DNA from: a virus
Lineage: Duplodnaviria > Caudoviricetes
Strand: one strand, 5' to 3'
Length of the DNA: 55,616 bases
IMG/VR virus record: IMGVR_UViG_3300028045_000018
Span: 1 to 55,616 of that record
In this document: piece after piece, positions 10,248 to 55,616 of the stretch
Layout of the letters: each line of letters opens with the position of its first letter
How positions within the stretch are numbered: position 1 is the stretch's first letter
Translations under genes and position numbers: made by a program
The notes under the pieces: model-generated
The model's database searches: none
What the model was told of the DNA's origin: nothing
The model's input: the letters and a program-made list of their open reading frames with translations, nothing else

Positions 10248-10248
10248 A

Positions 10249-14774: not shown

Positions 14775-14775
14775 A

Positions 14776-16235: not shown

Positions 16236-16245
16236 AAGGATTCTA

Positions 16246-18505: not shown

Positions 18506-18506
18506 A

Positions 18507-18824
18507 TTGATTAAGTTAAATAACGATAATGTTTATTTAAAAAAACATGTATCTTCAGGAGACTATCAGCAGACTAAAGGGAAACATAGTGAAATAAGAA
18601 TACCTACAGGAAAGTTGTTTGGATTAAGAAAATTTGATTTAATAGAAACAGTAAAAGGTATTGGTTTCGTAAAAGGAAAGAGAAAAAGGGGTTGGTTTGT
18701 TCTTTTTAATTTGAGCAATGATACAAAATTTGAGGTTAGTGTAAAGAAAAATTGTAAAAGAATTTTGGCAAGAAAAACAGTTTTAACAGAAAGATTGAGA
18801 ATTTCCCTTCTCAAAACGACATAA
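18507..18824 (+). pseudogene. iscB: IscB C-terminal fragment (PLMP, RuvC and HNH deleted)
   Basis: KKHVSSGDYQQTKG...GKLFGLRKFDLI...GFVKGKR..G resembles IscB C-termini; follows omegaRNA directly. Confidence 0.65.
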
Positions 18825-20174: not shown

Positions 20175-20216
20175 ATAGTTGAGGAGCTATGATATTAATT
20201 ATAGCTCCTCAACTAT
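20175..20216. terminator. Perfect 16-bp inverted repeat between convergent genes
   Basis: ATAGTTGAGGAGCTAT-N10-ATAGCTCCTCAACTAT. Confidence 0.6.
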
Positions 20217-22854: not shown

Positions 22855-22863
22855 GAATTGAAA

Positions 22864-24540
22864 ATGAAAGTTTTCGTTAAAGGTAAGGGTCAGGTCAATC
22901 TTTCCAAGACTGATTTCTTGGCTCAGGGCGGCGAAGGCAAAATTTTTGTTAAGGGTAAAACTGCGTACAAGATTTACCTAGACCCTAAAAAGATGATTCC
23001 TGTCGCAAAAATTCAAGAACTTTCATCACTTTCTTTGCCAAATATTATACGTCCAGAACGTGTTATTTTAGATAACAAGGATAACCCAGTCGGTTATACG
23101 ATGCGTTATGTAAAAGATACGACTTCTCTTTGCAAAATCTTCACAAAAACGTTCAAAAGGAAGAACAACATACAACCTGGTTGCGTAGCGGATTTAGTCA
23201 AAAAACTATATGAAGGCATTCAGCATGTACATAGCAAGCAAATTCTAATCGTTGATTTAAACGAAATGAATTTCCTTCTCAATAACAAACTTGATGATAT
23301 ATTCTTTATTGATACTGATAGTTACAAAACTAAAAGTTATAATGCTACAGCCATCATGGAAAGCATTCGAGATAGACATTCGTCTTCGTTCAGTACAAAT
23401 ACGGACTGGTTCTCATTCGGAATTATCTCATTCCAAATGTTTATAGGTATACATCCATTTAAAGGGAAGCATTCTAAATTCAAAAATCTTGATGACAGGA
23501 TGATGAATAATGTTTCGGTATTGAATAAGGCTGTATCTATACCTAAACTTTGTGCTTCTTTTGACGTAATTCCTCAAACATATAGGGAATGGTATAAAGC
23601 TGTGTTTGAGGATGGGAAAAGAGTTCCTCCACCAGGTGGATTCCAAGATCTCATTATTATTCAGCCTACTATCCATACAGTTAAAGGTAGTGATAATCTC
23701 GATATTGAAGAGTTACAAAAATACGATCAAGCTGTCATCGACTGCAAATACATTAATGGTAATAGAGTTGCGATCACTAACTCTAATATCTATATCAATG
23801 ACAAGAAAAGACCGCCAATAGCGAATGTCTTTATCGGTTCTACTCCAAAGATGGGACATGTAGTTGCGGCACGTATTGAAAATGGTCTTTTAAAATTGCA
23901 TAACGTAACTATGAGCAAAGCCATTGATTGCACAATTGCTGCTGAAAAAGTCATGTCATATGACGAAAGAATATATGTAAAGAATGGTTTAGATGTATAT
24001 GAAATCAAACTAAACGAGTTAGGCAATAGAATTATTGCAACGCCTACTATCGTAGCTAATGTCATGGAGAAGGCTACGCATGTTTACGATGGAGTTATAT
24101 TGCAAGACTTATTGGGAGCATGTTATGCTTCTATGTTCCCAGAGCCAAAAACTCACGTACAGTCCCACTTGAAAGAACTTATTGGATACAAAATAGTTGA
24201 TGCTAAATATTCTAATAGAATTCTTATGATTGTAGGACAGAAAAAAGGTAAATACGATAAACTTATCTTTAGGTTTGATTCTTCGCATCAGTCTTACGAT
24301 TTGAATATAAAGAGTGATATCGTTTATTCTGGATTGAACTTCGTAGTTCTTGATAATGGAATATGCGTACATATAAATGAAGATGAAAATATAGAGTTGT
24401 TCGTTAATAAGCTTGGAGTAACTGATACTAAGGTTGTTGACGATACAAGTATTGATGGTAACATGACTCTATACAAAAATGGTAATCAAGTTCTGTTTGC
24501 CAAAGACAACGCGATTTACAAGATGTCACTTAAGAAATGA
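22864..24540 (+). CDS. Ser/Thr protein kinase with long beta-rich C-terminal region
   Basis: LAQGGEG, AYKIY, IVDLNEMNFL, FIDTDSY, TDWFSFG, HPFKG. Confidence 0.88.
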   Translation: MKVFVKGKGQVNLSKTDFLAQGGEGKIFVKGKTAYKIYLDPKKMIPVAKIQELSSLSLPNIIRPERVILDNKDNPVGYTMRYVKDTTSLCKIFTKTFKRKNNIQPGCVADLVKKLYEGIQHVHSKQILIVDLNEMNFLLNNKLDDIFFIDTDSYKTKSYNATAIMESIRDRHSSSFSTNTDWFSFGIISFQMFIGIHPFKGKHSKFKNLDDRMMNNVSVLNKAVSIPKLCASFDVIPQTYREWYKAVFEDGKRVPPPGGFQDLIIIQPTIHTVKGSDNLDIEELQKYDQAVIDCKYINGNRVAITNSNIYINDKKRPPIANVFIGSTPKMGHVVAARIENGLLKLHNVTMSKAIDCTIAAEKVMSYDERIYVKNGLDVYEIKLNELGNRIIATPTIVANVMEKATHVYDGVILQDLLGACYASMFPEPKTHVQSHLKELIGYKIVDAKYSNRILMIVGQKKGKYDKLIFRFDSSHQSYDLNIKSDIVYSGLNFVVLDNGICVHINEDENIELFVNKLGVTDTKVVDDTSIDGNMTLYKNGNQVLFAKDNAIYKMSLKK

Positions 24541-26584: not shown

Positions 26585-26772
26585 GTGGGTGGGAGTTCGG
26601 ATAGAACTGAACTGTGTAATTATACATTCTTTGGAATGACTCCAATTTGACCTTGATCTCGAATTCAAAACTGATGATTCAAAGGTTCAAAATTGAAGAT
26701 TTAAGTATTAAAACTTATCCTATTACATTGTTCGGAGTTGCTTCGGCTTCTATATTCGAATCTCCCATCCAC
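26585..26772 (+). ncRNA. Candidate structured RNA with internal heptamer repeats
   Basis: GTGGGTGGGAG/CTCCCATCCAC 11-bp closing stem plus nested stems; about 7 repeats RTT(C/G/T/A)AAR at 26663-26713. Confidence 0.65.
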
Positions 26773-26803
26773 TATTTTAAAAGAATACTTAATAGGAGAC
26801 GAA

Positions 26804-27229
26804 ATGAAAGAGCGTGTAGCCAAAGCTGGTGTAGCAGTTTTTATCGTAAACGAATCAAATCAAATATTGCTTGGGGTCAGAATTGCCAAACCAGGTTACG
26901 GTCATAACGAATGGCAACTTCCAGGCGGTAAAATATCACATATGGAAGACTGGGTTGACACATGCGTGAGGGAGGTTAAAGAAGAAACAGATCTTGATAT
27001 AGATGATATTCATTTTATCACATCAAGAAATGACACTTATCCTGAATTAGATATACATTTTGTTTGTTCGTTTTTTGTAGCCAGAAAATATTCTGGAGAA
27101 GCTAAAATCATGGAACCAACAAAATGTTTTGAATGGAAATGGTTTGACATAGACAACTTGCCAAAACCTATGTTTTTGTCGATACAAGAGATAGTTAGTA
27201 AAAATTACAACACGATAATTGGAGATTGA
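26804..27229 (+). CDS. NUDIX hydrolase (MutT/NUDT15-like)
   Basis: LPGGK....E....C.REVKEETDL; EP.KC..W.WF. Confidence 0.9.
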   Translation: MKERVAKAGVAVFIVNESNQILLGVRIAKPGYGHNEWQLPGGKISHMEDWVDTCVREVKEETDLDIDDIHFITSRNDTYPELDIHFVCSFFVARKYSGEAKIMEPTKCFEWKWFDIDNLPKPMFLSIQEIVSKNYNTIIGD

Positions 27230-27684: not shown

Positions 27685-28740
27685 ATGACTAAAAAAGAAA
27701 CTAAAAGAAAAATTAAAAGAAAAATTAAAAGAAAAGTTATTATTCGTAACAGTCAATCGCCTGGTGATATAGTCATGTTAACGGCTGCTGTTCGAGACTT
27801 GTATTTGTCTCATCCTGAGATAGGCATTGACCCAAGAACTTCTGCCGGTGAATTATGGGAGAATAACCCATATATTGTCAAATTGAAAGAAGGCAATAAA
27901 GATGTTGAAGACATTAAGGTAGACTATCCATTAATTCACGAAAGCAATGAAGGTCAACATCACTTTATACATGGATATCGTAAAGACTTAGAAGAGAAGT
28001 TAGGCATTAATATCAAACCAACTAAGTTTAAAGGAGATATCCATATCAGCGATGAAGAGAAAGGATGGATTTCTCAGGTCGAAGAGATGGGTATTAAAAA
28101 TGATTTTTGGATTGTCATGGCAGGTGGAAAATACGACTACACCTGTAAATTTTCAAATCCCAAAACAATTCAAAAAGTTATCGACCATTTTAAAGGTAAA
28201 ATAACTTTTGTACAGTGCGGTCAAGCAGACCACTATCATCCACAGCTTGACAATGTTATTAACTTAATAGGGAAAACAGATTTAAGACAATTTATACGTC
28301 TTATTTATCATTCTGTTGGAGTTCTTTGCCCTGTAACGTTTGCCATGCATGGTGCTGCTGCTATTGAGATGAAAAATACTCCTCCACAAAATAGACCATG
28401 TGTTGTTATTGCTGGAGGTAGAGAACCTCCTCAATGGGAAGCATATCCAAATCACAGGTTTTTAGATGTAAATGGAGCGATAGACTGTTGCGACAATGGA
28501 GGTTGTTGGAAAAGTAGATGTCAGACTGTTGGTGATGGCGATAAAAAAGATATCAAAGATTTATGTCTTTATCCGGTAGAGATTACAGACAAACTCAAAA
28601 TACCGAAGTGTATGGATATGATTAAAGACATTGATATAATAAGAGCGATATCTACATATTATAAAGGTGGAGTTTTAAAATACAATGACGATAAATCAAA
28701 CGACAAAACAATAATAAAAGTAGAAGGTGGCATATTGTGA
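27685..28740 (+). CDS. GT9 (heptosyltransferase-like) glycosyltransferase
   Basis: SPGDIVMLTAAVRDL, NNPY, NLIGKTDLRQ, MH.AAA. Confidence 0.85.
   Translation: MTKKETKRKIKRKIKRKVIIRNSQSPGDIVMLTAAVRDLYLSHPEIGIDPRTSAGELWENNPYIVKLKEGNKDVEDIKVDYPLIHESNEGQHHFIHGYRKDLEEKLGINIKPTKFKGDIHISDEEKGWISQVEEMGIKNDFWIVMAGGKYDYTCKFSNPKTIQKVIDHFKGKITFVQCGQADHYHPQLDNVINLIGKTDLRQFIRLIYHSVGVLCPVTFAMHGAAAIEMKNTPPQNRPCVVIAGGREPPQWEAYPNHRFLDVNGAIDCCDNGGCWKSRCQTVGDGDKKDIKDLCLYPVEITDKLKIPKCMDMIKDIDIIRAISTYYKGGVLKYNDDKSNDKTIIKVEGGIL
27703..27738 (+). repeat. 12-bp tandem repeat x3 encoding KRKI-KRKI-KRKV
   Basis: AAAAGAAAAATT AAAAGAAAAATT AAAAGAAAAGTT. Confidence 0.8.
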
Positions 28741-29810
28741 GTACGATAGGAATTTTTTCGAAGTTTGAGATGTGTGGTGGATCTGAGATAAGATGCATCG
28801 AGCTTGCTAATGCTATTTCTAAATATACTGAGCATGTGCCTTTAATTTTATGCGAAAAGAACATGCCCAAAAGTTTACTCGAATACAAAAACCATGAAGT
28901 ACAAGTAGTCGAAAACGTTTTATTGCCAGAACCAAATAATTTCGAGTATTTATATAAAGTTGATTCTCTTGTTATTATTAACACTGATTGTAAAGAGTTT
29001 TCAACGTTAGACTATTGGGAAGGCAAATCGACTAGGCATTCTATCAAAATCGATTTATCTAGAATATCTCAAATGACGTTTCTTTATAACTTTATAGTTA
29101 GTCCATCTAGACATTTACATACTATAGCAGAAAAAGGTGTTGATGTTAGAATTCTAGTTGCAAATCGCAAGTTTTTTGATGAGATCAGTAAGCAAGACAG
29201 ATATGAGATGGTTAGACATTTGCCTCGTATGATTATAGAAAGTCCTATAAATACAAAAAAAATACAACTTCCTAAAAACGTTTGTGATAAAATAAGAATT
29301 GGTAGACATTCTATAGGTTCTGAGTCTAAATTTGATGCTGAGAATGTTAAACTGATAAAAGAAATAAACAAAAGATATGAAAACGAGATAGAGTGGGATT
29401 TTATGGGAGTCCCAAAAAGAGACATAAAAGAATTGAAGAAAATCGAGAATGTAACTATAAGAAATACATTTTCTATTCCAGTATCTAAATACTTACAAGA
29501 TATAGATATTTTCCTTTTCTTTGTTTCGTGGAAGAGAGAAGAGCCATGGTCTAGATCTGTAGCTGAAGCGATAGCTAGTGGATGTCCGATTCTTGCAACT
29601 AATAGAGGCGGCAATAAAGATCAAGTTGTGCATGGAAACAATGGATTTTTATGCAAATCTCAAAAAGACTTTCATAAACATATTATTTCTTTGATAGAAC
29701 ATAGAGATCAAATAAAAAAAATGGGAGAAAATAGTTTACTTTATTCAAAATTCTTCACATCAGAATATGTTATAAATAAACTAGTTAAGTTCATTGGATT
29801 AGAAATATGA
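28737..29810 (+). CDS. GT4 (GT-B) glycosyltransferase
   Basis: GGSE; EPWSRSVAEAIASGCPILATNRGG..DQV..G.NGFL. Confidence 0.88.
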   Translation: MSTIGIFSKFEMCGGSEIRCIELANAISKYTEHVPLILCEKNMPKSLLEYKNHEVQVVENVLLPEPNNFEYLYKVDSLVIINTDCKEFSTLDYWEGKSTRHSIKIDLSRISQMTFLYNFIVSPSRHLHTIAEKGVDVRILVANRKFFDEISKQDRYEMVRHLPRMIIESPINTKKIQLPKNVCDKIRIGRHSIGSESKFDAENVKLIKEINKRYENEIEWDFMGVPKRDIKELKKIENVTIRNTFSIPVSKYLQDIDIFLFFVSWKREEPWSRSVAEAIASGCPILATNRGGNKDQVVHGNNGFLCKSQKDFHKHIISLIEHRDQIKKMGENSLLYSKFFTSEYVINKLVKFIGLEI

Positions 29811-30931
29811 AAAATATAATAGTTTGTAATCTAAAAAGATCTAAGGACTTAGAGCATTACAAAAAATATATTCATGGTCAAATAGACAATAGTTTATTAT
29901 TGGGTTGGAAAAAAGAAGATATCATTTTTGCGACAAATTTTTCTTATTCTTATAGGGGAGTAGAATCTGTCATTTTTGATTTAGACTGTAATTTTTGTTT
30001 AACTGGCAGTAAAGTATTTGCAATGGTCAAATTATTTGATGCTGGAATGATAACTGAAAATGCATGGTTACATGATTTAGATTTATGGCAAACACATCAA
30101 TTTGAGTTTCCTGAAGACATTGCTGATGTCGGCATGACCAGATATATTGGCAGATGGCAGGGAGGCAGTGTTTTTCTCAAACCATCTTCTAAAGATGTTT
30201 TTGTTAGGATTACAGATCGCATTAGGCAAGAAAAATCTAGAAAAGAAGAGCCTATTATTAAACTTGTTTTCAAAGAAGACGAATACAAAAAACGTGTTAC
30301 GCGAATAGATGGATCATATAATGTAGGAGCGACTGGTTTTGAAAAAAGATACGTTAACAGCCAGAAGCCCATTAAAGCCATACACATGCATCCTCATAGA
30401 GGAACAGATTATAATCGGAATATAGCTGGGATGAACAGGTTAGGCGTTAAAACTGTTGATAGTGATTTATTAAATATATTTTCTAAGTATTTTAACATAT
30501 CTAAAGATTTGACTAAAGATGCTTCTATAGACATAAAGATTAATAATTCCGATTATAATATAAGAGATTTATGTTGTGGAGAAAAGTTTCATACAAATAG
30601 AAGATTTAGTTTTGTAGGTATAGCAGATGTTTTAAAAGGAAGAAAATTTCTAGCTATACCGCATAAAAAGAAAGTTTCGATAGATATTACTGTCGTTGAG
30701 CCAGGTATTTTTGAAATAGGTCTTTGTGATGAGCATAAAGAAATAATATCTAGATTTGTAGAGTATTATGAGATGGAACACATACCTCTCAAAACAGATT
30801 ACAGAGACGCAAAAAAAATTAGATTATTTAGGAAGTTCTTCAAAAAAGGCGAGAGACTTTGTCTCGAACATGAATGGCGTGTTAATCCTATTATAATCGC
30901 AAACAAAATTAATTGTAAAAGGCAAAATTAA
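29807..30931 (+). CDS. Putative GT-A glycosyltransferase-like protein
   Basis: WLHDLD DxD motif; glycan-island context. Confidence 0.5.
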   Translation: MKNIIVCNLKRSKDLEHYKKYIHGQIDNSLLLGWKKEDIIFATNFSYSYRGVESVIFDLDCNFCLTGSKVFAMVKLFDAGMITENAWLHDLDLWQTHQFEFPEDIADVGMTRYIGRWQGGSVFLKPSSKDVFVRITDRIRQEKSRKEEPIIKLVFKEDEYKKRVTRIDGSYNVGATGFEKRYVNSQKPIKAIHMHPHRGTDYNRNIAGMNRLGVKTVDSDLLNIFSKYFNISKDLTKDASIDIKINNSDYNIRDLCCGEKFHTNRRFSFVGIADVLKGRKFLAIPHKKKVSIDITVVEPGIFEIGLCDEHKEIISRFVEYYEMEHIPLKTDYRDAKKIRLFRKFFKKGERLCLEHEWRVNPIIIANKINCKRQN

Positions 30932-31591
30932 ATGAAACCATCAAAAGATTTTAATAATATCTTTAAAGAAGTAGTAAATAAAGACACTTATATGATAAGA
31001 GATATTAAGAGAGATATAGATTTTGTAATCGACATAGGAGCTAATATAGGTGTATTTTCGTTATATTCTAGAATTATGTTTCCAGATGCACGCATAATAG
31101 CTATAGAACCAGAAAAAACCAACTTTGTACATTTGACAGAAAATCTTAAAGGATTATATGTCGATTGCGAGAATGCAGCTTGTGGTGACGGGCGAGAATT
31201 GTATTTCAGAAATAATGGTAGCAATTGTGGACAGTATACCTTCGAAGATAAGCCAATAGATGAAAAATCACTAATGGTAAGAAGTATTTCTCTAAAAGAT
31301 ATATTTAAAAAATATAATTTTAAAACAGATAAAAATTATATTATTAAATCCGATTGTGAAGGTGGAGAGAGATTTTTGTTAAATGATTATAAAGATATTA
31401 TAGGAAAATGTAAACATTTTTGCATGGAAATTCACTTTCCCAATCCTAGGCATAAACAGTTTGATAAGTTTCCTTCTTATATGGAATATTATAATTGGGT
31501 TCAAACCTTTTCACATACGCATAAAATAACATATCATCACTCTAGGAAAAAAAGTGGTATAGGGGTTTATGTTTTATCGAGATATATATAG
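30932..31591 (+). CDS. FkbM-family methyltransferase
   Basis: VIDIGANIG, AIEP, KSDCEGGE. Confidence 0.9.
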   Translation: MKPSKDFNNIFKEVVNKDTYMIRDIKRDIDFVIDIGANIGVFSLYSRIMFPDARIIAIEPEKTNFVHLTENLKGLYVDCENAACGDGRELYFRNNGSNCGQYTFEDKPIDEKSLMVRSISLKDIFKKYNFKTDKNYIIKSDCEGGERFLLNDYKDIIGKCKHFCMEIHFPNPRHKQFDKFPSYMEYYNWVQTFSHTHKITYHHSRKKSGIGVYVLSRYI

Positions 31592-31601
31592 AAAGATATA
31601 A

Positions 31602-32417
31602 ATGGCAGTTTGGAACGATTATAATTGGAGTTTTTGGGATTCAAATAAAAACCCATTACCTGAAAAATCTTCTAGATATAGGAAAATATCTATTTGTACT
31701 ACATGCATGAATAGATTAGGCAATCTTAAAGAAACATTACCCAAAAACATAGAAGACAACAAAGACTATCCAAATGTAGAATTTGTGCTGTTAGATTATA
31801 ATAGTGCAGATGGACTAGAAGATTGGGTAAAACAAAATATGATGGATCACATTAATTCTGGAAGATTAGTTTATTATAAAACATCTGAACCAGAACACTT
31901 TAGAATGGGACATTCTAGAAACGTTGCGTTTAAATTGTCAACAGGGGATATAGTTAACAATGTAGATGCCGATAATTTTATAGGGAAGGGGTTTATTGAC
32001 GTTATAAATAAATTAGCTGAACTTTGTCCGGAAAGAGCTATTTTCGCAAAAGGTAAACGAATGATGCATGGAAGAATAGGTCTTTATAAAAATGAGTTTT
32101 TGACTTTGGGCGGTTATGATGAAGATTTATTAGGATATGGATTTGATGATCATAGCGTGGTTTATAGAGCGATGGCTTTAGGACATAAATTCATGTGGTG
32201 GAATAATTCTGGTGATTTTATGAATAGAATAAAAACGTCCAGTAGAGATAAAACAAGACATATGTCAAAAACGAATAAAAACTGGAAAGAGACAGAAGTT
32301 ATCAATAAAGAAATAACGATGAAAAAAATAAAAGCTGGTGAATTTATAGTTAATCAAAACAGTCATTGGGGAAAAGCCGTTGTAACCAAAAATTTTGTAG
32401 AAACAACTAGTATATAA
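31602..32417 (+). CDS. GT2/GT7-like glycosyltransferase
   Basis: LLDYNSADG, SRNVA, NVDAD, GGYDE...GYGFDD. Confidence 0.85.
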   Translation: MAVWNDYNWSFWDSNKNPLPEKSSRYRKISICTTCMNRLGNLKETLPKNIEDNKDYPNVEFVLLDYNSADGLEDWVKQNMMDHINSGRLVYYKTSEPEHFRMGHSRNVAFKLSTGDIVNNVDADNFIGKGFIDVINKLAELCPERAIFAKGKRMMHGRIGLYKNEFLTLGGYDEDLLGYGFDDHSVVYRAMALGHKFMWWNNSGDFMNRIKTSSRDKTRHMSKTNKNWKETEVINKEITMKKIKAGEFIVNQNSHWGKAVVTKNFVETTSI

Positions 32418-32444
32418 AACGATTCGTCTAAAAGGTAAAAACAA

Positions 32445-33116
32445 ATGATTAGTAACGGCAATAATGACGGTGTTTCTGAGATTAAAACGATTGTCACAAA
32501 CGACATATATAAAGTGTCATCTTTTTTAAGTGGCGATTTAGACTTTATAGTAGATATAGGAGCGAATATAGGTGTTTTCTCTGTAATGATGCGAATGAAA
32601 CATCCTAAATCTAAAATAGTTGCTGTAGAGCCATGTTTAGAAACTGCATATTTTTTAGAGAAAAATACGAACATGCTTGATATAGATGTGCTTCCACATG
32701 CTTTTGGCAACGGTTCTGAAGTTTCTTTTTTTAGTGTAGATGACAATTTATTACGTAACGTTTTTATATCTGACGAAGAAGAGACATATCGGGTTAAAAG
32801 CTTAACGCTGGGAGATATATTCGACAAACAAAAATTAGACATATCACAAAATTACTTGTTAAAATTTGATTGTGAAGGTGCTGAACAGTTTTTGATAGGA
32901 GATCCTATCGCAGAAAATATCATTAAAAACTCGCTCCAAACAAGTTTAGAAATACATTTTAAATCTAAGAAAACTCCATATGACTTTTGGATCGATTTCA
33001 CTTCATACAATGATTGGGTCTACGAAAAGTTTTCAGATTCTCATTCAATAGATTATTATAAATCACGTAAAAACAATGGTTATGGTCATTACTGCATCAA
33101 AAGGAAAAATGGTTGA
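32445..33116 (+). CDS. FkbM-family methyltransferase
   Basis: IVDIGANIG, AVEP, KFDCEGAE. Confidence 0.9.
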   Translation: MISNGNNDGVSEIKTIVTNDIYKVSSFLSGDLDFIVDIGANIGVFSVMMRMKHPKSKIVAVEPCLETAYFLEKNTNMLDIDVLPHAFGNGSEVSFFSVDDNLLRNVFISDEEETYRVKSLTLGDIFDKQKLDISQNYLLKFDCEGAEQFLIGDPIAENIIKNSLQTSLEIHFKSKKTPYDFWIDFTSYNDWVYEKFSDSHSIDYYKSRKNNGYGHYCIKRKNG

Positions 33117-36100
33117 AAATAATCAAACAATTAATTTTTTACACAATGGTGCTCAGGGAGATATAATCTATTCTCTTCCAACGGTTATCGCTTTTGGAGG
33201 AGGCGATTTTTATTTTGAAAAACACAACCAATTTAAAAACTTATTATCTCTTTTAGAGTTGCAACCATATCTTAATTCAGTTGCTTTGTATGATAAAACT
33301 GCTAAAATTGATGTAAATCTTAGTGTTTATAGAAAAGAGGATTTAGTAAATAAGCACTTATGCAGATGTCATTTAGATCCATTTCAAAAAGAATACGATT
33401 TATCGAAGTCATGGATTACGAACATAGAACCAAAACATATGGCCGATATAATAATATGTAGGACTAGAAGATATCATGATAAGAAAGAGATTGATTGGTC
33501 TATATTAAAAAAATATGAAGATAAATTACTTTTCATTGGAGATGAAAAAGATCGTAAACTTCTTCATCAAGAATATGGAGTAAACGCAAAAGGATATTGG
33601 TGTAAAGACGGTTTAGAATTCGCACAGATTATAAAAGGTAGTAAGATATATATCGGGAATCAATCTTTGGGTTTCGCTTTAGCCGAAGCAATGAAACATC
33701 CTAGAATATTAGAAGTATATTATGGGAAAAATAATTGTCAACCAAATAGCGATAATGGATATACTTATCTTAATGAAGATTTAATTGATTCCCATTTAAA
33801 GGATAAAAAAATGATTAGTAAAAAAACTAAACATAGTGGACTTTCAGAAATTAAAACGATAATAAAACAAGACATATATAATGTCAACTCATATCGAGAT
33901 GGTGATATAGATTTTATAATAGATATTGGGGCAAATATAGGTGTGTTTTCTGTAATGATGAGAATGCGTCATCCAAATGCAAGAATAATTGCTATAGAAC
34001 CCAATCCAGAATCTTATGAATATTTATTATCTAATACTAATGCCCTTAATATTGAAACTGTACAAAAAGCCTTTGGAAATGGAAAAGAACTATTTTTCTT
34101 CGATAGAGACGGTACGATAATTAGCAATATTTATTTACACGATATAGAACAAAAAGATCAACGCGGTCGCATAGAAAGTTTAACATTAAAAAATATATTT
34201 GAGACATTTAACTTAGACATGTCACAAAACTATATATTAAAATTTGACTGTGAAGGAGCAGAAAAATATCTTGTTGAAGATAGCGATTCTGAAGAAATTA
34301 TTAAGAATTCTCTTCAAACTTGTTTAGAAATACATTTTAATTCTGGGTTTGCATCGTTTGATTTTTTTGAAGAATACAATACCTACAATGATTGGATTAA
34401 TAAGAAACTTTCAAATTCTCATTTTATTAGATATTACAAATCGAGAAGATCAAAAGGTTATGGTCATTATTGTTTAGTAAACAAAAATAAACTAAAACCT
34501 GAAAATAGATCTTTTTTTTCTTTTGGATATAAAGCAAAACAAGGACAAGACAAATGGATCGTAGATACTCTTGACTGGAAAACTAACGGATATTTTGTTG
34601 ATATAGGAGCATACGATGGAGTTGACGAAAGCAATAGTTATATTCTTGAAAAGGATTTTAATTGGAATGGCATATGTATAGAACCAAACATACATACTTT
34701 TTCTGAAATGAAAAAACAAAGAAAATGTATATGTGAAAATATATGTATTTCAGACGTTAATGGAACAGTAGAATTTATTGAAAGAGATAAAAAACATAAA
34801 ATGATTTCTGGGATACATGCAGAATTCTCAGATGATGCGGTTATAGATGGAATAAAAGATGGAGTTCCTGTGGTATCAAGGACATCAATGAGACTTTATG
34901 ATCTTTTGAAAAAACATAACAGTCCAAACGTCATAGATTATCTCAGCATAGATACAGAAGGATCTGAATATGAAATACTGAAAAACTTTCCTTTTGACAA
35001 ATATATATTTAAAAGAATAACAATAGAACATAATGCATGTAATGGTCAAAAAGAAGAAAAAAAGAAGAAAAAAATATTTGAGCTACTTACACAAAATGGT
35101 TATAAAAGAGTTGAAGAAATGCAATTTGAAGATTGGTACGTTTATAGCAACTCTTTAAAAGTAATTCATTTTGACGATTTACAACATATATCTAAAAAAT
35201 ATAAATCAATAAATAAAAAAATAGTTTCGACAAATGGTGTTTTTGATTTATTACATCCTGGACATTTGAGATTCCTTTCAGAGTGCAAAGAAAACGGAGA
35301 CATACTTGTTGTCGGACTCAATACGGATAGTTCTGTAAAAAGAATAAAGGGAGACAACAAACCAATATTAAACCAACAAGAACGAATTGAAATGTTGTCG
35401 CATGTTGATATTGTAGATTATATATGCTTGTTTGATGAAGAAACTCCATGCAAAATGCTTGCCGAGCTTAAGACAGATGTCCACTGTAAAGATTCAAGTT
35501 ATTCCATTGACGAAATAGTAGAAAAACCAACCGTTGAAGAAAATGGTGGAAAAATAGAACTTATAAAAAATCATTACGGATATTCGACTACCAATATTAT
35601 TAAAAGAGTAAAAAACAAATTAAAGATTGGAGTAATTATAATAGCAACAGGTCGTTATTTGGAATTAATACAAGATCCTCGTTTTGATATAATAAACTCA
35701 TTAAATAAGCACTTCTTTACTGAAGATATAGTTAATATTTATTTGTTTACTGATGGCGATCCACCAGATAATGTAAAACATATTTATCAAGAACAAATGC
35801 CGTGGCCGTATCCTACGTTATTGAGATTCCGCTCTTTTTATAATTCGAGAGATATCTATAAAGATAATGATTATATGTTCTATATAGACGCAGATTCTCG
35901 TATCGTATCTGATGTTGGGAAAGAAATTATTTCTGATTTTACAGTTGTACAACATTGGTCATTAAGAAGATACAAAAACAAAAAAAGATTTCCATTCGAA
36001 ACCAACATACAATCAACTTCAGCAATAACAGATCCAAATTATTCAGAATATTATTCTGGAGCTTTCTTTGGAGCAAAAACAGATAAGTTTATATCAATGT

Positions 36101-36348
36101 CCAAAAACCTGTCTGATAATGTAGATAAAGATCTGGAAAATAACATTATTGCGGTATGGCACGATGAAAGTCATTTAAATAAATATTGTTATGACAATCC
36201 CCCAGAACTAGTTCTTGACAGTAGGTATCAAGCAAGGATAAACCATGTACACGAACTAGAAGACACAGATCTATTGAAACAAAGAGATTATAAAATAACT
36301 GGTTTAAATTTAGTTGATAAAAAACATTATAGGATTAAAGAAAAATGA
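33109..36348 (+). CDS. Five-domain glycan enzyme: GT9-like + FkbM + FkbM + cytidylyltransferase (RfaE/HldE-II-like) + GT6
   Basis: GAQGDIIYSLP...YIGNQS; DIGANIG..KFDCEG; DIGAYDG..SIDTEGSE; NGVFDLLHPGH..GLNTD; IIATGRY..YIDAD..AVWHDESHLNKY. Confidence 0.85.
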   Translation: MVENNQTINFLHNGAQGDIIYSLPTVIAFGGGDFYFEKHNQFKNLLSLLELQPYLNSVALYDKTAKIDVNLSVYRKEDLVNKHLCRCHLDPFQKEYDLSKSWITNIEPKHMADIIICRTRRYHDKKEIDWSILKKYEDKLLFIGDEKDRKLLHQEYGVNAKGYWCKDGLEFAQIIKGSKIYIGNQSLGFALAEAMKHPRILEVYYGKNNCQPNSDNGYTYLNEDLIDSHLKDKKMISKKTKHSGLSEIKTIIKQDIYNVNSYRDGDIDFIIDIGANIGVFSVMMRMRHPNARIIAIEPNPESYEYLLSNTNALNIETVQKAFGNGKELFFFDRDGTIISNIYLHDIEQKDQRGRIESLTLKNIFETFNLDMSQNYILKFDCEGAEKYLVEDSDSEEIIKNSLQTCLEIHFNSGFASFDFFEEYNTYNDWINKKLSNSHFIRYYKSRRSKGYGHYCLVNKNKLKPENRSFFSFGYKAKQGQDKWIVDTLDWKTNGYFVDIGAYDGVDESNSYILEKDFNWNGICIEPNIHTFSEMKKQRKCICENICISDVNGTVEFIERDKKHKMISGIHAEFSDDAVIDGIKDGVPVVSRTSMRLYDLLKKHNSPNVIDYLSIDTEGSEYEILKNFPFDKYIFKRITIEHNACNGQKEEKKKKKIFELLTQNGYKRVEEMQFEDWYVYSNSLKVIHFDDLQHISKKYKSINKKIVSTNGVFDLLHPGHLRFLSECKENGDILVVGLNTDSSVKRIKGDNKPILNQQERIEMLSHVDIVDYICLFDEETPCKMLAELKTDVHCKDSSYSIDEIVEKPTVEENGGKIELIKNHYGYSTTNIIKRVKNKLKIGVIIIATGRYLELIQDPRFDIINSLNKHFFTEDIVNIYLFTDGDPPDNVKHIYQEQMPWPYPTLLRFRSFYNSRDIYKDNDYMFYIDADSRIVSDVGKEIISDFTVVQHWSLRRYKNKKRFPFETNIQSTSAITDPNYSEYYSGAFFGAKTDKFISMSKNLSDNVDKDLENNIIAVWHDESHLNKYCYDNPPELVLDSRYQARINHVHELEDTDLLKQRDYKITGLNLVDKKHYRIKEK

Positions 36349-37025
36349 TTACTAATAATAAAAATCAAGGGTTCGCACCAATCAAACAAATCATAACAGA
36401 AGACCTTTTTAGAGTAAGAGGTTATCCAATTGATTCTTTTGATTATATAATTGATATAGGAGCTAATTTAGGGGTGTTTTCATTATTCACTGCCATGTTA
36501 TATCCCAAAGCTCGTATATTTGCATATGAACCATGTAAAGAAACATATAACTATTTGGTCAAAAACGTACATGGTTTTAATGTTGAATGTTTTCAACTCG
36601 CTCTAGGAGATGGCAATGATCTCTACCTGTCTGAACAAAAAGATCATACTGAAAACTTTTTTACTGAAAAGTCATTAGATGGAATTAAAACAAAAACTAA
36701 AAAACTATCAAACATGATTAAAGATATAGGAATAGATATTAACAATAGCAACTATTTGATTAAAATGAATGTAGAAGGTGGTGAGAAATTTCTACTTACA
36801 GATGATCTATCTGATATAATAAAAAATTGCAAGCATTTTTGCATGTCAATTCATTTCAGTTCGTTAAAAGGATGGGGTTCTGAAAAAAATAATCATTTAT
36901 TAACATACGATAAATATGATGAATGGACCAAACAATTCGAGTCAACGCATGACGTATTTTATTACAAATCAAGGAAATCTAAAGGCTATGGTCACTATTT
37001 GTTGAAAAAGAAAGTTGATTTATAA
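36345..37025 (+). CDS. FkbM-family methyltransferase
   Basis: IIDIGANLG, AYEP, KMNVEGGE. Confidence 0.9.
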   Translation: MITNNKNQGFAPIKQIITEDLFRVRGYPIDSFDYIIDIGANLGVFSLFTAMLYPKARIFAYEPCKETYNYLVKNVHGFNVECFQLALGDGNDLYLSEQKDHTENFFTEKSLDGIKTKTKKLSNMIKDIGIDINNSNYLIKMNVEGGEKFLLTDDLSDIIKNCKHFCMSIHFSSLKGWGSEKNNHLLTYDKYDEWTKQFESTHDVFYYKSRKSKGYGHYLLKKKVDL

Positions 37026-44345: not shown

Positions 44346-44610
44346 GTCAACTACCCTAAAGGAAGGGCTTGAACCGTGAGGTTCGAGAGTAATTAGTTGA
44401 TTAGTGAGCTTAATTAAGGAATTAGTTATGCAGCAGTTACAATCAAAGTTAAAGAACGCACCAAGGAATGCCTCCCTAGTTCCTTGCTCTGTAAATTCTT
44501 CATTAAACAAAGATCAAAGTCTTAGTGTGGAGAATAAAGTACTGAATTGTAACAATCACGAAGGGAATCTACCTCAACGTAAAGAGGGAAAGAACTTGAG
44601 AGTCTCTTTC
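44346..44610 (+). ncRNA. omegaRNA (HEARO-like) scaffold of IscB
   Basis: GTCAACTACCC...GGGCTTGAACC-GTGA-GGTTCGAG...TAGTTGA opening; TTAAACA motif; directly upstream of PLMP-containing ORF. Confidence 0.8.
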
Positions 44611-45813
44611 ATGGTTTACGTATTAAATTTACGAGGAGAACCTTTGATGCCATGTTCTCCGCAGAAAGCTAAGAAATTGATTAAGGAGAATTTAGCGTGT
44701 GTAGTTAGAAGAAGTCCATTTACGATTCAGTTGAAATATGCGACTGGAGAGAATAAACAGGAAGTAACATTAGGAATAGATTCTGGAGCAAAGAATATAG
44801 GTTTTAGTGCAGTTTCGAAAGAAAAAGAATTAATAAGCGGAACTGTAGTTCTTGATGATAAAATGAAATCAAGACTAGCAGATAGAAAAATGTATCGCAG
44901 AAGTAAAAGAGGCAAATTGTGGTACAGGAAACCCAGATGGAAAAATAGAGTTTCTACTAAGAAGAAAGGTTGGCTTCCACCTTCTATTTTAAGGAAATAT
45001 TTCACTCATTTAACTCTTATTAATAAAATTAAACATCTTCTTCCTATTACTAAAGTAGTAGTAGAAGTAGGAAATTTTGACATACAAAAGATTAAGAATC
45101 CTGATATTTCTGGTAAAGAGTATCAAGAAGGTGATTTATTAGGTTATAATAATGTTAAATCTTATATTTTTGCAAGAGAAAATTATATTTGTCAACTTTG
45201 TAAGAAATCAGTTATTGGAGATAAGACTAATTTACATCATATTATTCCTAAACCTGAAGGAACCGACAAAGCAGACAACTTGGCTTTATTACACAAGAAG
45301 TGCCACAAAAAACTACATGAACAAGGTTTAGAAAGTAAACTGAAGAAAAGTAAACAATATAAAGAAGCAACGTTTATGAATATTGTTAAGAATAAGTTTC
45401 AAGAAGATTTAGATTGTAAACTTGTTTTTGGTTATGAAACGTTTACTAAGAGAAATGAACTAGGAATAGGAAAATCACATATTAACGATGCTTTTGTAAT
45501 TTCAGGTGGAGAAAAACAAGAAAGAACATTACCTTTTGAAGCAACACAAAAACGTAAAAACAATAGATGTTTACAAAAAAATAGAAAAGGATTTAAACGT
45601 TCTGTTCGTAAGCAAAGATATGCTATTCAACCTAAAGACCTAGTTAAGATAGAAGGTAAGTTTTTTGAAGTCAAAGGTATATTTAGTTATGGAAAACAGA
45701 TTAGATTAGTTAATAAGGTAGGAAAAATTGTTAATAAATCAGTTAAAAAAGTGAATTGGGTTTTTCATAATAAAACGTTAATATGGAACGTAACTGTGAA
45801 TCGAAGAAAGTAA
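44611..45813 (+). mobile_element. iscB: IscB RNA-guided nuclease (IS200/IS605 OMEGA), apparently intact; no TnpA in window
   Basis: MVYVL...PLMP, LGIDSG (RuvC-I), R..RR..R bridge helix, VEVGNFD, CQLC..HHIIP..N..HKKCH (HNH), KSHINDA (RuvC-III). Confidence 0.93.
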
Positions 45814-45914
45814 TGTCTGTCGATAGCAGAATGGACGAAAAAGCTCTCTTTGAAAGAAAGAAAGTTGATAAAAAGCAAAGAATAGCTTCTGATATTTAAA
45901 TAAAGAAAATACAT

Positions 45915-46000
45915 GCGGGTGTGGCGAAACTGGAAAACGTGCCAGATTTAGAATCTGGTGAGCTTTAATGCTCTTGGAGGTTCAAGTCCTCTCACCCGTA
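45915..46000 (+). tRNA. tRNA-Leu(TAG)
   Basis: GCGGGTG/CACCCGT, CCAGA-TTTAGAA-TCTGG, long variable arm. Confidence 0.92.
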
Positions 46001-46006
46001 TTATAT

Positions 46007-46270: not shown

Positions 46271-46276
46271 GTAGTT

Positions 46277-46352
46277 GGCAGAGTAGGCTAATTGGTATTG
46301 CCGCTCCTTTCAAAAAGGAGTGTTTCTGTGGGTTCGACTCCCATCTCTGCTA
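46277..46352 (+). tRNA. tRNA with CAA (Leu) anticodon, short variable arm
   Basis: GGCAGAG/CTCTGCT, CTCCT-TTCAAAA-AGGAG, 7-nt variable region. Confidence 0.8.
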
Positions 46353-46355
46353 TCT

Positions 46356-46431
46356 GGTCCTGTAGGCTAACTAGGCATGTGCCGCCAAACTTAAAACTTG
46401 GTGTTTGAGAGTTCGAATCTCTCCGGGACTA
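46356..46431 (+). tRNA. tRNA with TAA (Leu) anticodon, short variable arm
   Basis: GGTCCTG/CGGGACT, CCAAA-CTTAAAA-CTTGG, 5-nt variable region. Confidence 0.8.
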
Positions 46432-46438
46432 TTTACAC

Positions 46439-46470
46439 GCCGCAGTAACCCAATGGCATGAGGTGACTAA
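46439..46470 (+). pseudogene. 5' half of a tRNA, truncated just before the HNH cassette
   Basis: GCCGCAG-TA-ACC-CAATGGCATGA-GGT-G-ACTAA; no matching 3' half seen. Confidence 0.45.
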
Positions 46471-46522
46471 ATAGAGGTATTGTTTGAGCAACATAGAATA
46501 GTAGGTATAAGGAGATAATATT

Positions 46523-47014
46523 ATGCCTACTTGTAAAAAATGTAATCAAAAATATCCATGTTGGGTTGAAATAGATGGGAAACAAAGAAACTTAGGAACT
46601 AGAAAATTCTGTCTTGACTGTTCCCCTTTTGGAAGTCATAATACAAGAGATCTTACTATTCCTAAAAAAGACAAAAAGCAAAGAAATTTAAGAACTTTTA
46701 CTTGTAAAATTTGCAAAAAAGAAAAGACAGCATATAACACTGGATATACATGCAATACTTGTAGAGCCTCTAAGAAGCGAAAAGACAATAAACTAAAAGC
46801 TTTAGAGTTCATGGGAGGGAGTAAATGTTCTAAATGTGGATACGATAAATGTCATTTTGCTTTAGATTTTCATCATATTGATGAGGATAAAAAGAAATTT
46901 ACTCTATCTGCACATTGGAATTATTCATGGCAAAAGCTTCTTCCAGAGATAAAAAAATGTGTTGTTCTTTGTAGAAATTGTCATGCAGAATTACATGCTG
47001 GATTAGCTTTATAA
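46523..47014 (+). CDS. HNH homing endonuclease with Zn fingers, within tRNA cluster
   Basis: CSKCGY..C..ALDFHH...KCVVLCRNCHAELH; class B-like motif GAGG-N15-ATAGAATA at 46474-46500. Confidence 0.9.
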   Translation: MPTCKKCNQKYPCWVEIDGKQRNLGTRKFCLDCSPFGSHNTRDLTIPKKDKKQRNLRTFTCKICKKEKTAYNTGYTCNTCRASKKRKDNKLKALEFMGGSKCSKCGYDKCHFALDFHHIDEDKKKFTLSAHWNYSWQKLLPEIKKCVVLCRNCHAELHAGLAL

Positions 47015-47048
47015 AATTTATTTACGCAGACAACAAGCAGTAGTTTTT

Positions 47049-47171
47049 ATCCGGGTGATGGAAAGGAAGACATGGCAGATTTAATGGATTCTTGCAGTAT
47101 GTACCTGATAACGAGAATCCCTTAATCTGTTGCTCTTAACGAGCGTGTGGGTTCGAATCCCACTCCGGATA
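47049..47171 (+). tRNA. Leu-type tRNA with a 39-nt hairpin intron in the anticodon loop
   Basis: ATCCGGG/TCCGGAT, GCAGA(47075-79)/TCTGT(47126-30) separated by 46 nt, long variable arm GCTC-TTAAC-GAGC, GTGGG-TTCGAAT-CCCAC. Confidence 0.8.
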
Positions 47172-50083: not shown

Positions 50084-50167
50084 TTTTTAATTAAGTTGTG
50101 ATATATTATATGTTATAATGCATCAGATCAATAAAATAGATATTTAAGACCGAAAGGTCTTTGTTCT

Positions 50168-50240
50168 GCGTCCGTAGTTGAGGGATTTAACGGCAAATTC
50201 TAAATTTGTGACTACGTGGGTTTGAATCCCACCGGACGCG
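50168..50240 (+). tRNA. Amber suppressor tRNA (anticodon CTA)
   Basis: GCGTCCG/CGGACGC, GTTG/TAAC D-stem, GCAAA-TTCTAAA-TTTGT with CTA at 50200-50202, T-loop TTTGAAT; class A promoter 50097-50119. Confidence 0.8.
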
Positions 50241-50245
50241 ATTCG

Positions 50246-53837: not shown

Positions 53838-54437
53838 ATGAAAAATATATTACTAACATTGATAATAGCTTTAGTTTTTTGTTCTGGATGTTACGAATGC
53901 TTCTATTTTAATGACAAGCCAGACGATTCTATAACGGCTCCAAAAGCTCCTCAGACGGCAGGAGATGTAGGTGAGCCGATTTTTGAAGATCCGATAACTC
54001 TTGAGGATCTTGTGGTAGAGAATCGAGTTAAAACAGAGGTTATTGCTCAGAGGGACGAAGAAATAGATGTTCTTGAGAGGATAGTAATGCAGAAGCAAAA
54101 AGCTATCGAAAACATCGTTGCTGAGAGCAATAAAATAAAAGATGATGTTGATGCCATAAAATCTATAATAAAGACCGCAGGACCGACTACAAAGCCTTCT
54201 ATAGAGCCTCATTTACAAGATATCGGCGACAGTTCTAACAAAATAAGCGATTTAGTCGCTGATCCTATTGAACCAGAGATTGGACCTATGGATATTGATG
54301 ATATTGGTCCTATAGATGTTCCTTTAGTTCAAAGTCCATATATTAATATTTGGAAAAGTCCGAAATTTTGGTTAGGTTTAATATTTGGTCTTTTGGGACT
54401 AGGTTTAGTCGTTAAATTTATGTTTTTCAAAAATTAA
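53838..54437 (+). CDS. Lipoprotein with coiled coil and C-terminal TM helix (u-spanin-like topology)
   Basis: MKNILLTLIIALVFCSGC lipobox-like; FWLGLIFGLLGLGLVVKFMFF. Confidence 0.55.
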   Translation: MKNILLTLIIALVFCSGCYECFYFNDKPDDSITAPKAPQTAGDVGEPIFEDPITLEDLVVENRVKTEVIAQRDEEIDVLERIVMQKQKAIENIVAESNKIKDDVDAIKSIIKTAGPTTKPSIEPHLQDIGDSSNKISDLVADPIEPEIGPMDIDDIGPIDVPLVQSPYINIWKSPKFWLGLIFGLLGLGLVVKFMFFKN

Positions 54438-54994
54438 AGCAATCGACTAACAGCATTATTCCACATGCCGCAATAAAGCCAACCTTTAGCTGACCATTTG
54501 ATAGTTCTATCGCCCACCAAAAGATTAATCTGTTCAGCGTTTAAGACAAGTATTTCTATATCTTCGGAAGATTCATTTTCTGCGGTAGACGGTTCTCCTT
54601 CTACTTCAGCAAAAACCATAGTCACTGTTTCATCTGTTAGTCCTGCGGAGTTATATGTTGATGGGCTAACAACTAGAATGTTCTTTACTTCCATCCCTGT
54701 TTCTTCTTTAAACTCTCTTCTAGCCGCATCTTCTGCGGTCTCGCCTTCGTCTATAAGCCCAGCAGGAAATTCTAGGATATAATCGCCAACAGGGACTCTA
54801 TATTGTTTTATGAGAACTAATCTATAAGGATCTATCATTAGACCGACAATCATAACGGCATCGCTCTGGCCGGTCTTTTTGGTTGATCTATTTACGTAGG
54901 TCCACTTCCCTTCTTTCTCTTTGTGTTCATATGTTGCTTCCATAAGATTTAAGAACGGGCGTTTTGTGACTATTTCTCGTTTAGTAACTTTCAT
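54434..54994 (-). CDS. NUDIX hydrolase, ADP-ribose pyrophosphatase-like
   Basis: KQYRVP....LEFPAGLIDEGE.....ARREFKEETG; SAGLTDE. Confidence 0.9.
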   Translation of the reverse strand: MKVTKREIVTKRPFLNLMEATYEHKEKEGKWTYVNRSTKKTGQSDAVMIVGLMIDPYRLVLIKQYRVPVGDYILEFPAGLIDEGETAEDAARREFKEETGMEVKNILVVSPSTYNSAGLTDETVTMVFAEVEGEPSTAENESSEDIEILVLNAEQINLLVGDRTIKWSAKGWLYCGMWNNAVSRLL

Positions 54995-55011
54995 TTTTTA
55001 TCCTTTAATAT

Positions 55012-55616
55012 TCATTTTAGCTTTTTTACGACAGGCATTCTACGACCGGTCCCAAAGGCTACAGAACATACCTTAATACCAATGGCTGATTGACGACGCT
55101 TGAACTCACTTTTATCAACTAAATGTATCATTCTGTTGTAGTCTGCTTTTGCATTTGGCGTTTCAGCCCAGTTTTTAACTACTGTAATGTTAGTAGTATT
55201 TTTGAATTCATCGAAATCGCCAAGATAACATTCAATATATTGGTAAAGAATAGGATCTAGAATCTCATATGGCAATAAGCTATCATCATCTTTTTGATCT
55301 GGAGCCAATTCTGCACTTGGTGGTTTCTTAATGATATTAATAGGTATAAGTTCTTTTTTTGCTTTTTTATTAAAATATTCAGCTAAAGCATAAACAATAG
55401 TTTTATAGACATCGCTAATAGGAGCGAAACCTCCGCACATATCGCCGTAAAGCGTGCAATATCCGACTGATAGTTCAGATTTATTGCCAGTACTGAGAGG
55501 AAGCATGCCAAAAGCGTTTGAAGCGTGCATTACGGCTGCTCCGCGAATTCTAGCTTGCATATTTTGGTCTGCTACATCGTTGTATCCTTTATCAAATATT
55601 AATGCCTCGAATATAT
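55012..55616 (-). CDS. nadE: NAD+ synthetase (C-terminal part; starts beyond the window)
   Basis: QNMQARIRG, STGNKSE..VGYCTLYGD, PISDVYKT, PPSAELAPDQKDDDSL, SEFKRRQ. Confidence 0.93.
   Translation of the reverse strand, partial: IFEALIFDKGYNDVADQNMQARIRGAAVMHASNAFGMLPLSTGNKSELSVGYCTLYGDMCGGFAPISDVYKTIVYALAEYFNKKAKKELIPINIIKKPPSAELAPDQKDDDSLLPYEILDPILYQYIECYLGDFDEFKNTTNITVVKNWAETPNAKADYNRMIHLVDKSEFKRRQSAIGIKVCSVAFGTGRRMPVVKKLK

Follow-up and report, generated by a model that had tools for sequence, protein, structure and literature searches.

Can a phage tRNA gene be interrupted in its anticodon loop by a short hairpin, and if so, which tRNA does it encode, is the hairpin removed, and by what route? 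These questions are raised by positions 47049-47171 of an IMG/VR virus contig, analyzed over its full 55,616 bases and called the window here. Since the window is estimated to be only 27% complete at this length, it must derive from a large phage. The DNA runs that contain its sequence are marine or seawater metagenomes, the run listing gave no RNA run with it, and standard-code ORFs cover 93% of it. The tRNA-Tyr encoded in the window has the long variable arm typical of bacteria, and sigma-70 region 4 and lysozyme genes are also present; thus the host is bacterial, and an archaeal or eukaryotic host is ruled out by the same features. TTA is the commonest Leu codon both in this phage (406 of 1206) and in the relative described below (276 of 840). 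The window also has a tRNA with anticodon CTA (an amber suppressor, labeled Pyl by ARAGORN) at 50167-50241, and 12 of the 89 standard-code ORFs picked, which together give the 93% coverage, end in TAG. Other content includes a PP2C phosphatase adjoining a 560-aa Ser/Thr kinase-like protein (22054-24540) and a long block of glycosyltransferases and FkbM-type methyltransferases, among them a 1090-aa multidomain protein (27685-37025).

An interrupted tRNA gene and its junction

The gene at 47049-47171 is a complete tRNA with a long variable arm, in which 46 bases (47080-47125), equal to 7 + 39, lie between the two strands of the anticodon stem. Its parts are listed in Table 1 together with the other loci discussed. 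A first-pass annotation made from the sequence alone had described 39 extra nucleotides in the anticodon loop of a Leu-type body, folding as a hairpin, and this description is borne out by the gene anatomy, by the fold and by a conserved copy in a relative.

Table 1. Positions in the window of the interrupted tRNA-Leu gene, its parts, and related genes
Feature	Position	Strand	Description
Acceptor stem	47049-47055 with 47164-47170	+	7 pairs, 1 G-T
D arm	47058-47073	+	from ARAGORN -i drawing
Anticodon stem	47075-47079 with 47126-47130	+	GCAGA with TCTGT
Long variable arm	47131-47146	+	4-pair stem, 2 pairs changed on both sides relative to the related lineage
T arm	47147-47163	+	
Discriminator (A73)	47171	+	A
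5' exon	47049-47084	+	acceptor 5' strand, D arm, anticodon stem 5' strand, loop 32-36 TTTAA; anticodon TAA 47082-47084
Insert	47085-47123	+	39 bases, hairpin between exons
3' exon	47124-47171	+	A37, A38, anticodon stem 3' strand, variable arm, T arm, acceptor 3' strand, discriminator A
Second interrupted tRNA	2914-3081	+	outer cloverleaf intact, short variable region, 102-base loop
Uninterrupted tRNA, anticodon TAA	46355-46432	+	loop CTTAAAA, short variable region; absent at that place in the relative
HNH endonuclease gene	46523-47014	+	phrog_2255, E 2.9e-40; just upstream of the interrupted tRNA; absent in the relative
RNA ligase, N-terminal OB domain (Rnl5-like)	12886-13938	+	PF09414 + PF21189; phrog_968; closest solved structure Naegleria gruberi RNA ligase 5cot, E 1.1e-16
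RNA 2'-phosphotransferase Tpt1/KptA	14743-15576	+	PF01885, E 2.6e-48; phrog_5470
Calcineurin-like phosphoesterase	15522-16235	+	PF00149; phrog_547
NADAR domain protein	16204-16908	+	PF08719

Within the insert, GGATTCTTG (47086-47094) pairs with CGAGAATCC (47112-47120) in an outer stem of 9 pairs, and CAG pairs with CTG (47095-47097 / 47105-47107) in an inner stem of 3 pairs that closes a 7-base end loop (47098-47104); ATAA is bulged at 47108-47111. T47085 lies opposite C47121, a mismatch kept in both lineages, and the last two insert bases, TT (47122-47123), pair with A35 and A36. Insert and anticodon stem together form one rod of 21 pairs, made up of the 5 stem pairs, a bulged position 32, 4 pairs (TTAA/TTAA), the T-C mismatch, 9 pairs, the 4-base bulge, 3 pairs and the 7-base loop. 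The minimum free energy of this arm is -18.3 kcal/mol (z = -4.09), and 1 of 200 shuffles was as good. The anticodon is predicted from this fold to be buried in the rod, and the interrupted tRNA could read codons only if the hairpin were removed by some putative cut-and-rejoin route.

Standard searches miss the gene. It is absent from the 14 tRNA genes reported for the window by ARAGORN with default settings, and Rfam at the gathering threshold gave 13 matches in the window with no RF00005 match for this gene; in E-value mode only its T arm scored, at 14.6 bits. When introns were allowed (ARAGORN -i) the gene was found, bringing the number to 15, and the program accepts it as a tRNA only after the 39 bases have been removed in silico. 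Of the Leu-type features of RF00005, the cloverleaf, the long variable arm and A73 are present, and a 7-base anticodon loop and a gathering score are lacking. The ARAGORN label for the interrupted gene, Ile(aat) i(41,37), is an artefact of a forced and arbitrary junction and was rejected, as was the label Lys(ttt) given to the relative's copy, likewise the product of a forced junction.

Eight junctions leave a 7-base loop. If 2-3 bases are kept on the 5' side the anticodon is that of Lys (CTT or TTT), if 4 are kept it is TAT, and if 5-7 are kept it is TAA, in agreement with the earlier arithmetic, which had a 36/37 junction giving Leu(TAA) and a 33/34 or 34/35 junction giving a Lys anticodon. 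Only the junction after position 36, with 5 bases kept, yields a Leu anticodon together with a purine at position 37. The loop so formed is TTTAA/AA in the window and CTTAA/AA in the relative (the slash marks the junction). Among uninterrupted loops of the same phage are that of the TAA tRNA in Table 1 and TTTAGAA, found in a long-arm Leu(tag) tRNA at 45914-46001 with a nearly identical stem, and it is this Leu(tag) tRNA to which the exons of the interrupted gene are closest (63/88). The relative's 37-kb contig, a fragment, has 7 tRNAs, and among these the TAA anticodon occurs in the interrupted gene alone. Because the purine-37 junction is unique, the loops match those of uninterrupted tRNAs, the exons are nearest to Leu(tag), TTA is the commonest Leu codon and no second TAA tRNA is present in the relative's contig, the gene is best read, from its sequence, as a tRNA-Leu(UAA) with a 39-base hairpin at 36/37. 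In the window itself, the interrupted tRNA may be dispensable, given the uninterrupted TAA tRNA.

With this junction, the 5' cut would follow A36, which pairs with the second-to-last insert base, and the 3' cut would follow the last insert base, which pairs with A35. Read off the sequence, these cut sites are separated by 2 pairs, would give a 3' overhang and fall at the T-C mismatch, with about 9 pairs on each side. It should be noted that the 2-base stagger is weak evidence when taken alone, because it follows from a single fact, the pairing of the insert's final TT with A35 and A36.

Conservation in a related lineage

A protein-guided search identified four contigs of a related lineage that are identical over the tRNA: L003 and L004 from IMG/VR, and L009 and L010 from metagenomes. 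Two loci came from the metagenome scan, and over the tRNA neither differs from L003; L009 comes from a 101-kb contig. This lineage is syntenic with the window from 39 to 55.6 kb, with a DNA identity of 76-93%, and has the same tRNA gene with the same 39-base insert at the same place. Between window and relative, all 40 of the 40 helix pairs are kept as standard pairs, and 10 of them carry substitutions in both partners: 9 of these belong to stems of the cloverleaf (the anticodon stem among them), and the tenth, 47087/47119, to the hairpin of the insert. None of 500 shuffles reached this combination of pair conservation and compensatory change, and slid controls gave 0-1; these statistics are thin, since the comparison rests on two distinct sequences and one independent relative lineage. 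The insert is identical at 35 of 39 positions and the exons at 55-56 of 84, and all 4 insert differences are accounted for by one compensatory pair and two end-loop bases. Because every pair has been kept through much sequence change, the interrupted gene is not a decaying pseudogene. The comparison of the two sequences indicates selection on both the tRNA and the insert, and the gene is real, conserved and structurally constrained.

The insert was also unchanged in spanning contigs of three further DNA runs (X3, X4 and X6; X5 had no cover there), and neither an insert-free DNA form nor a joint skipping the insert was found in the contigs of these four runs. It is single-copy in the window and in the relative. 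In IMG/VR, exact-pattern scans with the 5' exon, with the tRNA 3' end and with the 3' end of the tRNA at 2914-3081 each gave 0 stretches, and the insert-core pattern gave 2, both on the related contigs already known. No tRNA was found in the more distant relatives L005 and L006 (records G003 and G004). In GenBank phages the only matches were a short one to HNH (8 records) and chance ones within protein-coding genes (104 records, of which none covered 80% of the query).

The DNA just upstream of the interrupted gene differs between the two lineages. In the window, 46272-47074 holds a cassette with short-arm CAA and TAA tRNAs and the HNH gene that differs from the corresponding stretch of L003, 3742-3861. 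The two tRNAs, at 46276-46354 (CAA) and 46355-46432 (TAA), score 51.3 and 48.8 bits in Rfam and carry Leu anticodons on bodies with a short variable region, while the tRNA(CAA) found there in the relative has a stem in its variable arm. The blastn homology between window and relative resumes at 47075, inside the interrupted tRNA, so that a recombination border seems to lie in its 5' exon. In L003, a 107-base tRNA-like gene that is absent from the window lies between Ser(tga) and Ser(gct) at 3528-3634; its D arm is Leu-like, its T arm is good and its anticodon region pairs poorly, and the whole lies within a 12-pair inverted repeat (3513-3524 / 3639-3650; fold z -3.18).

Several other elements were seen in the window. 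Two HEARO (IscB guide) RNAs are present, in the regions 44346-45813 (107.9 bits) and 18272-19306 (102.1 bits). The start of a full RRXRR+HNH IscB gene, located right after tRNA-Tyr, is overlapped by the first RNA, and the relative lacks this element. After the second RNA come short ORFs only, one of which encodes an HNH protein of 160 aa; this may be a broken copy. On the minus strand, at 20209-20937, lies a gene for a homing endonuclease with a NUMOD3 motif (phrog_314, with a weaker GIY-YIG family match), although nearly all of the genome is otherwise on the plus strand.

Intron classes and a second interrupted tRNA

The insert was compared with the known classes of tRNA intron. No group I intron, ribozyme or other family was found for it among the Rfam matches in the window (13 at the gathering threshold; 7 at E up to 10), and the insert has 39 bases as against roughly 200 or more for a group I core. 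The group I intron of bacterial and plastid tRNA-Leu(UAA) interrupts the same tRNA species, also in the anticodon loop, but its self-splicing core is about 200 bases long or longer, and it lies between positions 34 and 35, not at 36/37. The bulge-helix-bulge motif recognized at protein-spliced junctions has two 3-base bulges at the splice sites, a 4-pair helix between them and helices flanking them. All 12 registers of a 39-base excision were examined in the window and in L003, and none had the 4 central pairs together with at least 2 pairs in both flanking helices. Both the Rfam search and the register scan thus agree with the first-pass annotation, which had judged the insert too short for a group I intron and had seen no canonical bulge-helix-bulge. 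Genes for a splicing endonuclease (PF01974) or for RNase III numbered 0 in three phage fragments (27%, 8% and 6% complete); among 14 control genomes, PF01974 was found only in 4 archaeal ones and the RNase III family in 8, all bacterial.

The protein-spliced introns of archaea and eukaryotes do resemble the present case in that a short insert lies beside the anticodon, with the anticodon paired to the insert, and in that Tpt1 takes part in the fungal and plant version (PMC4090602). They differ from it in that here no bulge-helix-bulge fits, the site is not 37/38, the host is bacterial and no splicing endonuclease was found in the phage fragments searched. Two other types of insert also share features with it. 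Like the introns described in Lak megaphages, the insert lies in an anticodon loop, has no Rfam match and is conserved between related phages; the tRNA-like (acceptor/T-arm) element of the Lak type is absent from this simple 39-base hairpin and present at 2914-3081. As in intervening sequences of the RNase III type, an extra helix of sufficient length, here the 21-pair rod, grows from a native loop.

The loop of the second interrupted tRNA, at 2914-3081, holds a whole tRNA-Lys(CTT) at 2948-3021 (Rfam 60.8 bits) and a 20-21-base spacer with a weak GGTTT/AAACC hairpin. The candidate anticodons are UAG, UUU and CUU. Judged from the sequence, a 36/37 junction can be read here too; it would give CTTAG/AA, with anticodon UAG and a loop like that of the phage's own Leu(tag). 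On the UAG reading, TTAGGC (2946-2951) pairs with GCTTAA (3041-3046), with the same 2-base stagger. The short variable region does not exclude this reading, because the CAA and TAA tRNAs at 46276-46432 are also short. In a rival reading the gene would be a Lys(UUU): the 5' cut would coincide with the site at which RNase P processes the nested tRNA, exactly after CTT, joining this to TTAA would give a Lys(TTT) loop, and the junction would lie elsewhere; the cut geometry of the interrupted tRNA-Leu is reproduced only by the UAG reading. No relative of this second gene was found by protein-guided searches with the adjoining genes.

The two interrupted tRNAs share bases around their inserts. The pattern GA-Y-TTA...CTTAATC pointed out in the first-pass annotation is indeed present in both, at 2943-3048 and 47078-47127, and had been taken as a recognition motif for a common splicing nuclease. 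One part of that proposal stands, in that a common junction at 36/37 and a common geometry can be read: in both tRNAs (for 2914-3081 on the UAG reading) the final two insert bases, TT, pair with positions 35-36, which places the cuts 2 bases apart. The sequence motif itself fares less well. With a 36/37 junction the shared bases are mostly exon (the last two stem pairs, Y32, U33, U34, A35, A37 and A38), and the insert gives only CTT. The pattern has 3 matches in the window, 1 of them outside any tRNA, against a mean of 1.65, and at least 3 were obtained in 74 of 300 Markov simulations. Conservation of TTA...CTTAA among phage tRNA inserts in general, which had been put forward as the check, was not upheld: an IMG/VR scan with TTAATG..CCTTAATC..GGTTCGA gave 4 stretches, of which 2 are the orthologous contigs and 2 are chance matches that are not tRNAs, and the tRNA inserts of Lak megaphages have, by eye, different bases at the junction. 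Moreover, if a nuclease cut both copies of TTAAT at the same point, the loop left behind would have 5 bases. A nuclease that reads sequence is therefore not indicated, and what the two interrupted tRNAs have in common looks more like shape (a helix, a stagger and a site beside the anticodon) than sequence.

Possible fates of the insert

A set of genes related to RNA repair lies at 12.9-16.9 kb in the window, where an RNA ligase, a methyltransferase, Tpt1/KptA, a phosphoesterase and a NADAR protein follow one another in a row. We infer that the ligase is a candidate enzyme for joining the exons, and the phosphoesterase is possibly an RNA end-healing enzyme. No polynucleotide kinase was found among the 63 ORFs scanned in the window. 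NADAR proteins have been placed with RNA-repair systems, and large phages with gene sets of this kind are thought to restore cut tRNAs (PMC9503650). Elsewhere in the window (10210-11091, 17391-17780, 26738-27229 and 54434-55560) are genes for an R2K ATP-grasp protein, a small HAD protein, two NUDIX proteins and a NAD synthase fragment.

In T4, Pnkp and Rnl1 repair tRNA after cleavage by PrrC. The repair attributed to jumbo phages bearing KptA (PMC9503650) is similar to what is considered here in that a phage ligase set acts on breaks in the anticodon loop, and the window has the ligase, Tpt1/KptA, phosphoesterase and NADAR genes. In such repair, by contrast, one break left by a host defence nuclease is rejoined, while here two cuts would release an insert encoded in the genome.

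On balance we lean toward the view that the insert is spliced at all. How this would occur is more tentative, and as a leading model we suggest a cut in double-stranded RNA followed by ligation. A double-strand-specific endonuclease of the RNase III type, most likely that of the host, would cut both strands at the mismatch, after A47084 and after T47123, leaving a 2-base 3' overhang with 3'-OH and 5'-phosphate ends; a 2-base 3' overhang is the geometry of RNase III products. The phage RNA ligase might then close the loop again, producing a tRNA of 84 bases whose loop reads TTTAAAA. The intervening sequences of bacterial 23S rRNA offer a partial parallel, as they are extra stems that grow from a loop of a stable RNA and are excised by RNase III, a double-strand RNA nuclease of the type only proposed here (PMC8708148). 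They are longer (100-200 bases), however, and the pieces are not rejoined, so that the ribosome works in fragments (PMC8708148). A tRNA cut beside its anticodon must be rejoined, and therefore a ligase would be needed, unlike in fragmented rRNA. A literature search found no published precedent for the splicing of a tRNA by RNase III and a ligase. Several points speak against the model. Ligases of the Rnl5 type prefer nicks in duplexes, whereas the break would lie in a loop, and Tpt1 suggests that junctions form from ends with a 2',3'-cyclic phosphate, a kind of end not left by RNase III. The negative kinase search among the 63 ORFs also counts against it.

In a more general form, the cut-and-ligate model would amount to a protein-only tRNA splicing system of the phages' own. 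A hairpin placed after the anticodon would make the tRNA a substrate for RNase III, the host enzyme would release it with a 2-base stagger, and the phage ligase set would reseal the loop, with the same site and geometry for both interrupted tRNAs and for inserts of the Lak type. Such a system would be unrelated to group I ribozymes and to the archaeal and eukaryal endonuclease. We regard this as conceivable, with more doubt than confidence. If it were true, the insert could make the tRNA dependent on the phage ligase, or could hide the anticodon from host anticodon nucleases.

It is also possible, though we think it rather unlikely, that the insert is never removed and that the 123-base RNA works as a tRNA-shaped molecule with a masked anticodon, either as a decoy for host anticodon nucleases or as a leucine acceptor that does not decode. 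The greater conservation of the insert than of the exons is in keeping with this, as is the retention of the rod, its bulges and its mismatch in both lineages; leucyl-tRNA synthetase does not read the anticodon, and the window has another TAA tRNA. Against it, loop positions 32-38 stay those of a normal Leu(UAA) in both lineages though a third of the exon bases have changed, an observation that the TTAA/TTAA pairing could also explain, and no other TAA tRNA was seen in the relative's contig, itself a fragment.

If the insert is spliced, the cut might instead be made by another, metal-independent nuclease of host or phage that leaves a 2',3'-cyclic phosphate and a 5'-OH. The phosphoesterase and a kinase would then heal the ends, the ligase would seal them, and Tpt1 would remove the remaining 2'-phosphate, in the manner of yeast and plants. 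This would account for the presence of Tpt1, the phosphoesterase and NADAR beside the ligase, the removal of a junction 2'-phosphate being the known job of Tpt1 (PMC6097658; PMC9503650); it fits the similar junction surroundings in both interrupted tRNAs and the splicing nuclease that the first-pass annotation had postulated. We consider this route improbable, however. Neither a candidate nuclease nor a kinase was found among the 63 ORFs scanned, no bulge-helix-bulge fits any 39-base excision, no splicing endonuclease family was found in the three fragments, and the shared motif is not rarer than chance; gene sets of this kind are also generally read as serving the repair of host-cut tRNAs, not splicing (PMC9503650).

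The least likely explanation, and one to which we give little weight, is that a redundant tRNA gene has acquired, and tolerates, a selfish or accidental piece of DNA that is neither spliced nor functional. A direct repeat flanks the insert (TTAAT in the window, CTTAAT in the relative), the HNH gene and the extra TAA tRNA lie just upstream, and inserts in Lak phages show presence/absence polymorphism (PMC6784885), but 10 compensatory pair changes with no broken pair, between lineages that are 76-93% identical in the flanks, argue against it, as do the single copy of the insert in window and relative and the lack of an insert-free DNA form in the contigs of four runs. Removal of one repeat copy with the insert leaves a 5-base loop, and therefore duplication of a target in a normal loop does not account for the repeat. 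A transposon-like origin as the whole story was rejected for this reason and because the insert is single-copy.

The closest published cases are the "enigmatic" introns that Devoto et al. (2019; PMC6784885) described in tRNAs of Lak megaphages, with no Rfam match and one of them possibly encoding a tRNA. As in the window, these are inserts in the anticodon loops of phage tRNAs, have no Rfam match, are conserved in related phages and leave their route of removal unexplained. By eye, the Tyr, Phe and Thr cases in Table S6 of that study are likewise compatible with a junction that directly follows the anticodon and a 3' exon that begins with AA, and its authors place the Thr intron one base away from the program's call (PMC6784885). 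The Lak insert that may hold a tRNA has its counterpart at 2914-3081. There are differences as well: Lak inserts are mostly 79-141 bases long (Table S6 also has possible ones of 23, 52 and 76) and have a minihelix resembling an acceptor and T arm, whereas the tRNA-Leu insert is a plain 39-base hairpin; and Lak phages infect gut Prevotella and use an alternative code, whereas the present phage is marine, with standard-code ORFs over nearly all of the window. Our literature search found no paper proposing or testing a route of removal for such phage tRNA inserts, and introns are not mentioned by Al-Shayeb et al. (2020; PMC7162821).

The interrupted tRNA-Leu is thus a short, simple variant of phage tRNA inserts that are published but unexplained. 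Phage tRNA inserts that do not self-splice have been reported since 2019, and the 39-base case is a convenient test object, having one clear junction, compensatory changes in a relative, and a ligase and Tpt1 set in the same genome. It could show whether ordinary RNA-processing enzymes provide bacteria and phages with a way of splicing tRNAs. If instead the insert is left unspliced, the RNA would mimic a tRNA, conserved but with its anticodon masked, and this would have a bearing on how phages defend themselves against host systems that cut tRNAs.
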